Positions 1,800 to 2,498 of a stretch of 64,000 bases of DNA are shown piece after piece. The stretch is from an uncultured Candidatus Saccharibacteria bacterium (GTDB lineage Bacteria; Patescibacteriota; Minisyncoccia; 2-02-FULL-40-12), in contig CAYIZI010000001.1 of assembly GCA_964368135.1 (NCBI GenBank), positions 42,926 to 106,925 of the forward strand, written 5' to 3'. The notes beneath the pieces were generated by a model. It searched no databases. It was not told the DNA's origin and was given only the letters and a program-made list of their open reading frames with translations. Position 1 is the stretch's first letter. Each line of letters starts with the position of its first letter. The position numbers and the translations under genes were made by a program.

Positions 1800-2498
1800 T
1801 TATTTCTTTTCCTTGCCCTCCGAAGCCTTGGCGGAGGGAGGTTCTTTCCCTTTTTCCGTAGCCGGCGCTTCTGCCTCTGGTTTTTCCTCCTTTTTAATAA
1901 CCTCAACCTCCTCAACTGACGGCGGCGCCGCTTCTTCAATCTCCTCTTTTCTCGGCTCCTGAACAAGGGCAATCACGTCTTCGGGGTTGGCATTAATTTT
2001 CACCTTATCTGACAAAAGAATATTTTTAATTTTCACTTCATCGCCGAAATTATTTAAAACTGAAATATCAATCTGAAGTTCGTGGGGCAAATCCTGGGGC
2101 AGGGCTTCCACTTCAAGTTCATTGACCGTCTTAACCAAAATACCGCCGCTTTTAACCGCTTCTGATTCGCCTATCACGACAACTTGAACATTTGCCTTTA
2201 TTTTTTCCAAAAGATTAACTTTATAAAAATCGGCGTGAGTAATCTGATCGGTGATCGGATCTCTCTGAATATCTTTTATCACTGCCGGCTCAACTTTCGC
2301 CCCTATTTTTAAATTTATCAAAGTTGACTCACCGGCTTTTTTAAAGACTTTTTCAAAATCTGTGTATTTAATCTGAATCGGAACTGTCGCAAAGTCGTGG
2401 CCATAAACAACCGATGGCAAAAACCCCTCTTTTCTCAAAGAATTAAGCGCCTTCCCGACTGATTCGCGTTTCTGGGCCTGGAGTTCAATACGATCCAT
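1800..2498 (-). CDS. rplY: 50S ribosomal protein L25/general stress protein Ctc
   Basis: The internal ATG at 2498 gives MDRIELQAQKRESVGKALNSLRKEGFLPSVVYG..., which looks L25/Ctc-like. The track start 2621 would overlap the upstream gene. The tail is Lys/Glu/Pro/Ala-rich. Confidence 0.8.
   Translation of the reverse strand: MDRIELQAQKRESVGKALNSLRKEGFLPSVVYGHDFATVPIQIKYTDFEKVFKKAGESTLINLKIGAKVEPAVIKDIQRDPITDQITHADFYKVNLLEKIKANVQVVVIGESEAVKSGGILVKTVNELEVEALPQDLPHELQIDISVLNNFGDEVKIKNILLSDKVKINANPEDVIALVQEPRKEEIEEAAPPSVEEVEVIKKEEKPEAEAPATEKGKEPPSAKASEGKEKK

Follow-up and report, generated by a model that had tools for sequence, protein, structure and literature searches.

Two short segments in unrelated genes of an uncultured Candidatus Saccharibacteria bacterium (NCBI GenBank assembly GCA_964368135.1, contig CAYIZI010000001.1, positions 42,926 to 106,925 of the forward strand) are inserted copies of a short dispersed hairpin repeat, which is found in many phyla and has a covarying stem. 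The whole 64-kb stretch that was analysed, with a G+C content of 41.8%, is referred to as the window. Each window copy was inserted in a tolerant part of its host protein, one in the disordered tail of ribosomal protein L25 and the other in a surface loop of a conserved protein of 425 aa. We consider it probable that the repeat is a selfish or neutral element similar to the repetitive extragenic palindromic (REP) sequences and the Rickettsia palindromic elements (RPEs), and that it is tolerated in protein loops and tails. The family appears to be an undescribed variant of the short palindromic repeat inserted in frame in genes, which is itself a known kind of element. The features concerned are the following:

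1800..2501, minus strand: host gene 1, ribosomal protein L25/CTC (Pfam PF01386, E 2e-24; PF14693, E 8e-19)
1815..1841, minus strand: copy 1 (divergent), CCT CCC TCC GCC AAG GCT TCG GAG GGC, encoding PPSAKASEG
1761..1805, no strand assigned: L25's downstream intrinsic terminator (20-bp stem, then a T run), distinct from the repeat
6164..7441, minus strand: host gene 2, conserved Parcubacteria protein of 425 aa, without a Pfam family
7085..7114, minus strand: copy 2 (canonical), CCC TCC TTC GCT AAA GCT TCG GAG GGC (7088-7114) followed by ACA

An earlier note on this DNA had described a shared repeat of about 33 nt encoding AKASEG at these two places, and the letters it quoted were found where it had put them, in the same orientation and in frame in both genes on the minus strand. 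The ccctcc(g)/(c)ggaggg stems that it had proposed are real (CCCTCCG/CGGAGGG in copy 1 and CCCTCC/GGAGGG in copy 2). The repeat itself stands, with a unit of about 27-30 nt instead of 33, the extra AAAGAA being outside the family consensus. Ungapped and in the same orientation, the two segments are identical at 29 of 34 positions (1814-1847 against 7087-7120). In an all-against-all scan of the window, only two direct pairs reached at least 29/34, namely this one (1814/7087) and a 33/34 pair at 58571/59417, and the best direct pair in five triplet-preserving shuffles of the window scored 25-27/34 at most. The repeat segment has a G+C content of 63% (hand count), compared with 41.8% for the window. 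Sharing of the exact 13-mer is unremarkable by itself, as about 40 such pairs are estimated for 64 kb, and allowing up to two mismatches the 13-mer has three matches in the window against 1.3 expected. The earlier note would have given up the repeat if the 13-mer were not otherwise repeated, which is the case inside the window only and no longer holds when other genomes are included.

Copy 2 agrees with the family pattern at 18 of 18 core positions and four of four outer pairs, and adds 10 inserted codons, PSFAKASEGT, to the 425-aa protein (the open reading frame (ORF) reads ...VKEPSFAKASEGTAG... at this place). Its RNA hairpin, with the stem CCCTCC/GGAGGG, has a predicted energy of -12.3 to -16.6 kcal/mol. 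Copy 1 ends four codons ahead of the L25 stop (...KEPPSAKASEGKEKK*), folds into a 7-bp stem CCCTCCG/CGGAGGG (1816-1838) and is, from its letters, best read as a "TCC/CAAG" variant (of the PSSAKASEG type) whose 5' arm carries two substitutions; PSSAKASEG variants occur in other Patescibacteria as well. The peptide common to both copies, read in frame on the minus strand, is P(S/P)(F)AKASEG. The insertion proposed by the earlier note is retained. The copies are different variants (the inner-pair variant is TAAA in copy 2 and CAAG in copy 1), and they can be explained without one window gene having directly converted the other. Both copies are preceded on the 5' (coding-sense) side by AAAGAA, and given this shared flank a common local source for the two is possible. 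They are the only family members in the 64-kb window, each inside a gene. Neither was flagged for a terminator signature, i.e. a U tract directly after the hairpin on the minus strand, and at neither does an ORF for a GIY-YIG nuclease start a few nucleotides downstream. A role of the window copies as intrinsic terminators was rejected, as they have no T run and the real L25 terminator is at 1761-1805.

Scanning of species-representative genomes (one per species) with the exact pattern YCGCYRARGCTTCGGAGGGC returned at least 120 stretches, against a chance expectation for that collection estimated at about 17 matches. The consensus is (G)CCCTCC-TTC-GCY-RA-RGC-TTC-GGAGGG(C)A, and the family takes the general form [N4]CC-TTC-GCY-RA-RGC-TTC-GG[N4'], of which the window version is CCCT...AGGG. 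The 5' arm CCCTCCT, which lies outside the search pattern, is present with at least six of its seven bases in 114 of the 125 matches listed, and the inner pair (the Y with the last R) is C-G in 64 of the matches listed, T-A in 49, T-G in one and C-A in none (Fisher p ~1e-31). Over 121 copies the 5' boundary is sharp, with a random flank past a G at -8, and the 3' side goes on as A-x-G-C. The predicted fold has an outer stem of 7 bp, an internal loop of 3x3 (UUC/UUC, or GAA/GAA when the opposite strand is read) and then a short inner stem with a small loop, with energies of -14.6 to -16.6 kcal/mol. Among environmental viral contigs the canonical pattern was found in 12 stretches, and with the outer stem freed (CCTTCGCYRARGCTTCGG) at least 120 stretches were recovered, which form a larger family. 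In this family the four variable outer pairs covary (CCCG/CGGG, TCCG/CGGA, TCCT/AGGA, CCCC/GGGG, CCCA/TGGG and others), and pairing ends at the fifth position. For 107 distinct copies, 91.5% of the outer-stem cells are paired, compared with 81.4% in shuffles, and cells changed on both sides number 115 versus 39 +/- 9 in shuffles, with none of 500 shuffles as high and slid controls giving 9-43.

The matches listed come from Alpha-, Gamma- and Deltaproteobacteria, Verrucomicrobiota, Kiritimatiellota, Planctomycetota, Bacteroidota, Acidobacteriota, Nitrospirota, Dependentiae/TM6 and several Patescibacteria, bearing in mind that the taxon labels of metagenome-assembled genomes may be wrong. They include cultured isolates (Mesorhizobium, Bradyrhizobium, Brevundimonas, Taklimakanibacter, Plastoroseomonas and Aequorivita), and the G+C content of the loci ranges from 33% to 75%. 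BLAST searches returned no match to the element in 5,426 E. coli genomes, partial matches only in cultured phages, and five weak matches in 72,556 plasmids; the element is widespread, not universal. A search of seven element-bearing loci against Rfam (E<=1) gave tRNAs and noise only, with no hairpin family. In the open-access literature, the DNA and peptides of the element match unrelated primers only, and nothing describing it was found under palindromic or in-frame elements of the candidate phyla radiation (CPR), GIY-YIG repeats or UPF0213/YhbQ. The motif is not contained in the paper of Di Nocera et al. 2013 (PMC3733652).

The L25p and TL5_C Pfam domains of host gene 1 end at residue 184 of 233, which places copy 1 in the tail, a low-complexity region rich in E, K, A and P that varies among orthologues. 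The alignment of L25 orthologues suggested by the earlier note showed the tail segment to be lineage-specific: among the 120 closest orthologues, PPSAKASEG is found in the window's own protein only, and the DNA of the closest one has no counterpart of copy 1. About 25 L25 orthologues carry PS(A/V)AEA(M/L/T)EG directly after VEVIKK(E), and the version in L001, CCCTCCGCCGCTGAAGCTTTGGAGGGC, is a decayed copy of the element at another site of the tail. More distant metagenomic copies in L25 tails have no stems (e.g. CCTTCTGCTGTTGAAGCTATGGAGGAC), and in a metagenome scan for L25 relatives clearly recognisable decayed copies were found in two of 27 loci (L251 and L253). Another recurrent insert of the L25 tail, (A)EGEPRQGRE, was observed in P0202, P0211, P0213, P0229, P0236 and L261, being encoded in L261 by GCCGCCGAAGGCGAGCCTCGCCAAGGGCGGGAG, a different GC-rich hairpin-like sequence. 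Inserts of this kind seem to land frequently in the tail of L25. At the other end of the gene, the public L25 protein P0121 (273 aa) begins at GTG 2621; as the L25 domain and all orthologues begin at ATG 2501 (233 aa), the database start is probably 40 codons early.

The 425-aa protein has 2,243 homologues, with many invariant His, Glu, Asp, Lys and Trp residues, and by its protein matches the organism belongs with Parcubacteria/Paceibacterota. In most of 44 aligned homologues PSFAKASEGT stands opposite a gap of 9-10 codons. A codon alignment of five orthologous genes gave the same picture, with the site at residue 111 empty in L126, L127 and L001 and filled in L125 and L003 by nearly the same DNA as in the window, CCC TCC TTC GC(T/C) AA(A/G) GCT TCG (G/A)AG GGC ACA. 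A count over 120 homologues places the motif at four positions of this protein family, in two reading frames:

position 33: carrier P0020, in the other reading frame, LLRQGFGG
position 111: four homologues plus the window's own protein (also returned as P0001)
position 348: five sequences
position 366: carrier P0051

The DNA of L001 at sites 348 and 366 (GCCCTCCTTCGCTGAAGCTTCGGAAGGGC and CCATCCTTCGCTAAAGCTTCGGAGGGC) is the same element in different places. On a neighbour-joining tree (291 columns, insert regions masked), which is a crude one, the site-111 copy appears in four separate places, and three of the four carriers are paired with a sister that has no copy. Judged from these sequences, such a patchy distribution would imply that the copy was either gained more than once at one site or precisely lost more than once. 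The AlphaFold model of the protein (mean predicted local distance difference test score (pLDDT) 85, predicted template modelling score 0.87) has a pLDDT below 50 in exactly two segments, 111-118, which is copy 2, and 215-221, which is within a second private insertion listed further below. A Foldseek search of the model against the PDB gave no fold match (best E about 1). In related contigs the gene adjoins that of fructose-bisphosphate aldolase, often with a PfkB kinase upstream, and the sugar-phosphate cluster around it includes RpiB, a 2-hydroxyacid dehydrogenase and ribulose-phosphate epimerase. The 425-aa protein may be an unrecognised enzyme of that pathway.

The location of the copies differs between taxa. 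Among the copies listed, 16 of 17 in Patescibacteria are inside ORFs of at least 200 aa, as are two of two in TM6 and six of 18 in Bacteroidota, whereas in larger genomes the copies are mostly intergenic, near tRNA genes, terminator-like, or leaders of small GIY-YIG nuclease genes. The 16 copies in Patescibacteria use all three frames, 12 of them encoding PS(F/S)A(K/E)ASEG, two ALRS(F/L)(S/G)EGG and two PSEA(L/S)AKE. Read from the sequence, the CAAG variant has a stop codon in none of six frames, and the TAAA variant in two. The element occurs in both orientations. Several of the Bacteroidota copies lie directly against a tRNA gene's 3' end, with a T run behind them. Aminoacyl-tRNA synthetases were considered as special hosts and rejected, as the enzymes differ and so do the positions of the insertions in them.

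An unbiased clustering of ORFs identified GIY-YIG as the only protein family recurring within 2 kb of the copies (20 of the 120 loci listed), and a hidden Markov model of the small GIY-YIG protein detected it in 22 of these loci. The hairpin-adjacent protein matches Pfam GIY-YIG with E values of 1e-13 to 1e-16. In 18 of the 120 loci listed the gene starts 1-280 nt downstream of the hairpin, always on the GAA-orientation side, so that about 15% of the genomic copies listed are just upstream of a small GIY-YIG nuclease gene. In 12 of these loci the start is within 21 nt, which makes AAGGAGGG of the hairpin's 3' arm the ribosome-binding site of the gene. Hyphomicrobiales and relatives show the order tRNA gene, second hairpin, element and GIY-YIG gene of about 80-90 aa, the second hairpin being TCCTGC-GAA-GCGC-(N3)-GCGC-GAA-GCAGGA, i.e. 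with other arms on the same C-GAA-GC...GC-GAA-G architecture as the element. The module in Alphaproteobacteria (L021, L034, L037, L066, L073, L085, L095, L114 and others) consists of the tRNA 3' end, the second hairpin, a ATCCTGCTTCGCG arm, the element as GCCCTCC...GGAGGGC, and the co-oriented GIY-YIG gene. A 2026 preprint reports repression by the long leader of a GIY-YIG gene in Sinorhizobium; no hairpin is mentioned there, and a repressive leader is compatible with masking of the ribosome-binding site. No GIY-YIG gene was found near family members in 122 viral-contig loci (1.09 Mb), and the locus L058 has four copies between tRNA genes without one.

On the reading that we prefer, a selfish or neutral hairpin repeat would be copied to new places as a hairpin-forming unit, the likeliest route being a single-stranded DNA intermediate recognised by a putative trans-acting nuclease or transposase, without duplication of the target site. 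The hairpin would be needed for spreading and not for the host gene. That old copies decay is indicated by the L25-tail copies of relatives, which are degraded and have lost their stems. In the compact genomes of Patescibacteria and Dependentiae, with little intergenic DNA, the surviving copies would almost all be in frame inside genes, survival in coding DNA being expected only where both frame and peptide are tolerated, as for the Rickettsia elements. The copies would persist because the reading frame is kept and a harmless hydrophilic peptide is added. The same behaviour is seen in other inserts of the window, with lineage-private GC-rich hairpins of 36 nt in the 425-aa gene and 30 nt in a PfkB kinase gene.

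Several observations weigh against this reading. Two copies per 64 kb is far below the densities of classical REP sequences or RPEs. No target-site duplication was found, the flanking 2-4-mers being identical no more often than in shuffled pairings, and no transposase is linked to the copies, a homologue of the Y1 transposase being absent from the 64-kb window; around the 120 genomic copies listed, too, no Y1 transposase or RAYT was recurrent. The near-identity across phyla is not explained by any mechanism known for REP sequences. The search patterns fixed the core, so that its conservation is partly a matter of construction and the free positions alone are evidence. Finally, the site-111 copies are closer to each other in DNA than the background (all eight codons for identical residues are themselves identical between the window and L003, against a background of 0.55), and the sole difference between the window and L125 at this site is a compensatory pair. 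This conservation could be due to recent independent insertion, to conversion by other copies or to selection on the hairpin, and in the last case selection in place could mean that a host function fits better than pure junk.

Alternatively, the host could have recruited the hairpin as a functional signal in RNA or DNA (mRNA-stabilising or RNase-blocking, a pause or attenuation site, or a terminator module), which would then be kept in place by selection. The strong covariation of the stem would suit it, as would the T run behind the Bacteroidota hairpins that abut tRNA 3' ends, the GIY-YIG genes of Alphaproteobacteria and others that begin 1-21 nt downstream and have the 3' arm as their ribosome-binding site, the conservation of the site-111 copies above the synonymous background with one compensatory change, and the location of copy 1 near the 3' end of the L25 message. 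However, the window copies have neither a T run nor a terminator-like flag on the gene strand, copies lie at unrelated positions of unrelated proteins in three frames and both orientations, most orthologues do without the hairpin, copies in L25 tails decay without keeping their stems, and no Rfam family is matched. We regard this explanation as unlikely overall. It might instead be the nuclease that accounts for the copies, as scars or solo remnants of a larger mobile cassette (a small stand-alone GIY-YIG gene with a hairpin leader) that came in and was deleted afterwards, or as a homing or cleavage site spread by break repair. The recurrence of GIY-YIG genes within 2 kb, their fixed side and short distance and the Pfam scores given above speak for it, as does the window's own GIY-YIG gene (59178-59434) with its 18-bp inverted repeats and a solo third copy that holds the first codons of a lost gene. 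The repeats flanking that gene nevertheless differ from the element, about 85% of the copies listed have no GIY-YIG gene nearby, and the viral-contig loci and the four copies of L058 have none at all. Furthermore, we know of no GIY-YIG transposase. The cassette explanation is rated as unlikely, somewhat below that of a host signal.

A more far-reaching version of the nuclease idea would make the element a pan-bacterial hairpin of 27-30 nt (core CC-TTC-GCY-RA-RGC-TTC-GG) that a family of small stand-alone GIY-YIG nucleases mobilises or uses for homing or cleavage. It would then be a new nuclease-linked miniature mobile element that crosses phyla, settles in coding sequences and so reshapes the loops and tails of Patescibacteria housekeeping proteins; we hold this to be doubtful, on a par with the host signal. 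Chance resemblance, or convergence of low-complexity linkers rich in Ala, Lys, Ser, Glu and Gly towards the same preferred codons, could be entertained since L25 tails are E/K/A/P-rich and variable and chance alone would be expected to produce an exact 13-mer repeat in 64 kb. It is refuted by the shuffles, in which 29/34 was never reached, by the orthologue sites, by the cross-phylum copies and by the covariation; moreover, the segment has 63% G+C in a genome of 42%, and the same DNA recurs at other sites and in other frames and phyla with a covarying hairpin, leaving this explanation with next to no probability. The claim of the earlier note that an inserted DNA repeat is involved, and not convergent protein evolution, is upheld, with gaps in orthologues and the same DNA elsewhere, in many phyla.

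Among the nearest known systems are the RPEs, reportedly described by Ogata et al. in 2000. Like them, the element is a palindromic, probably selfish repeat found in frame in unrelated genes of a reduced genome, with orthologues that do not have the insert, a tolerated peptide, and both coding and non-coding copies. It differs in length (27-30 nt, compared with about 100-150 bp), in its two-stem hairpin with a conserved 3x3 internal loop, and in its occurrence in many phyla, RPEs being confined to Rickettsia and relatives (for a review covering RPEs, see PMC10969869). No similarity to RPE families came up in Rfam or in the literature. REP sequences and REPINs, including intragenic REPs (Di Nocera et al. 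2013, PMC3733652; Bertels & Rainey 2011, PMC3116915), are imperfect palindromes of 20-40 nt, dispersed, often downstream of genes and in some cases intragenic, which the 27-nt two-stem hairpin resembles. They have been proposed to spread as hairpin-forming units, moving as single-stranded hairpins without target duplication (PMC3733652, PMC3116915), which the element would share. Unlike REPs, the element has no GTAG or CGTC tag beside its stem in the profile of 121 copies, and its recurrent neighbour is GIY-YIG and not a Y1 transposase. No RAYT gene was found in the 64-kb window or linked to the copies listed. REPs are also high-copy and mostly extragenic, with families that are mostly specific to a species or genus, whereas the element has a low local density, is intragenic in the window and keeps the same sequence across phyla. 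From MITEs (miniature transposable elements with inverted repeats) of the cut-and-paste, DDE type it differs by the absence of a target-site duplication.

Free-standing and intron-encoded GIY-YIG homing endonuclease genes, e.g. that of I-TevI, have leader hairpins that sequester the ribosome-binding site. The approximately 15% of copies listed in which the 3' arm is the Shine-Dalgarno sequence of a GIY-YIG gene, which the 5' arm would mask, are similar to these leaders, in contrast to the window copies, which have no adjoining nuclease gene. Solo copies in unrelated genes are, to our knowledge, not a feature of homing endonuclease genes. The GC clusters of yeast and other fungal mitochondria are short GC-rich palindromes which invaded an AT-rich compact genome and occur in frame in var1. 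The likeness to the element in these respects is clear, but the clusters belong to another domain of life and have another sequence, and there is no evidence of a common origin (for related palindromic repeats, see PMC7218506). What appears to set the element apart is the combination of a missing tag, a conserved 3x3 loop, a cross-phylum sequence, a GIY-YIG neighbour and a near-exclusively intragenic location in Patescibacteria.

If the preferred reading of a tolerated hairpin repeat is true, small-genome bacteria of the CPR carry short hairpin repeats inside essential genes. This would affect protein alignment, annotation and modelling, the inserts being exactly the low-confidence loops, and the repeats would serve to mark recent insertion of DNA in organisms that cannot be cultured. 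It would also explain a class of recurring "junk" peptides in metagenomes, such as SFAKASEG, SEALAKEG, ALRSFSEGG and PPKPWRRR. Present knowledge of REPs, RPEs and MITEs does not account for one near-identical hairpin in about 10 phyla that has a covarying stem and GIY-YIG as recurrent neighbour; this points to an undescribed route by which very short DNA spreads.

The window contains other hairpin inserts and repeats:

6776-6811, minus strand: the second of the private insertions of the 425-aa gene, 12 codons exactly, PEGVASRPYGVG, absent from 43 of 43 aligned homologues
9347-9376, minus strand: insertion in a PfkB-family sugar kinase gene (8414-9463), 10 private codons, GPHLRASEGR, with four orthologues that do not have it
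59178-59434, minus strand: GIY-YIG nuclease gene, 85 aa, with perfect 18-bp inverted repeats CCCCGCACCTTTTCTGAA at 59442-59459 and 59156-59173
11732-11771, 21972-22001, 51350-51377 and 60424-60441: further short GC-rich hairpins in long ORFs, with PTSEVGAPTETSE, SSPGGVKQGG, APRLPASGGQAK and PQPRLTSGAE, respectively

The insert at 6776-6811 forms a GC-rich nested hairpin, ACCCCGTAGGGTCGCGAAGCGACTCCTTCGGGGT (plus strand, 6780-6813; -22.7 kcal/mol), which contains GCGAAGC. Perfect hairpins related to it (GGAGTCGCTTCGCGACTCC) are present in four viral contigs, and four matches for the GGAGTCGCTTCGCGACYC hairpin were found among the viral contigs. The DNA of the PfkB insert, GGCCCTCACTTGCGTGCAAGTGAAGGCC, is a hairpin with a 7-bp inner stem; viral contigs had no match to a 23-nt exact pattern taken from it, and 51343-51377, which resembles it, encodes PRLPASGGQA within another ORF. 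A third copy of CCCCGCACCTTTTCTGAA (58596-58613) lies inside a 42-nt direct repeat (58573-58614 against 59419-59460, 93%), which holds the first codons of a GIY-YIG gene and supplies the last codons and the stop of a gene for a 194-aa membrane protein. The region 58573-59460 on the minus strand looks like a small mobile cassette together with the remnant of a second one. In a related Parcubacteria genome, L001 (470-1135) and L002 (863-1528) encode a 221-aa IS200-like Y1 transposase (Pfam E 1.4e-5, HUH motif HFHFV) flanked by inverted repeats GACAGCGCCTTAGG / CCTAAGGCGCTGTC, which are unrelated to the element; this protein, which has no homologue in the window, is of the type flanked by terminal inverted repeats that was described by Di Nocera et al. 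The hairpins at 11732-11771, 21972-22001, 51350-51377 and 60424-60441 may, judging by their letters, be in-frame insertions of other families.

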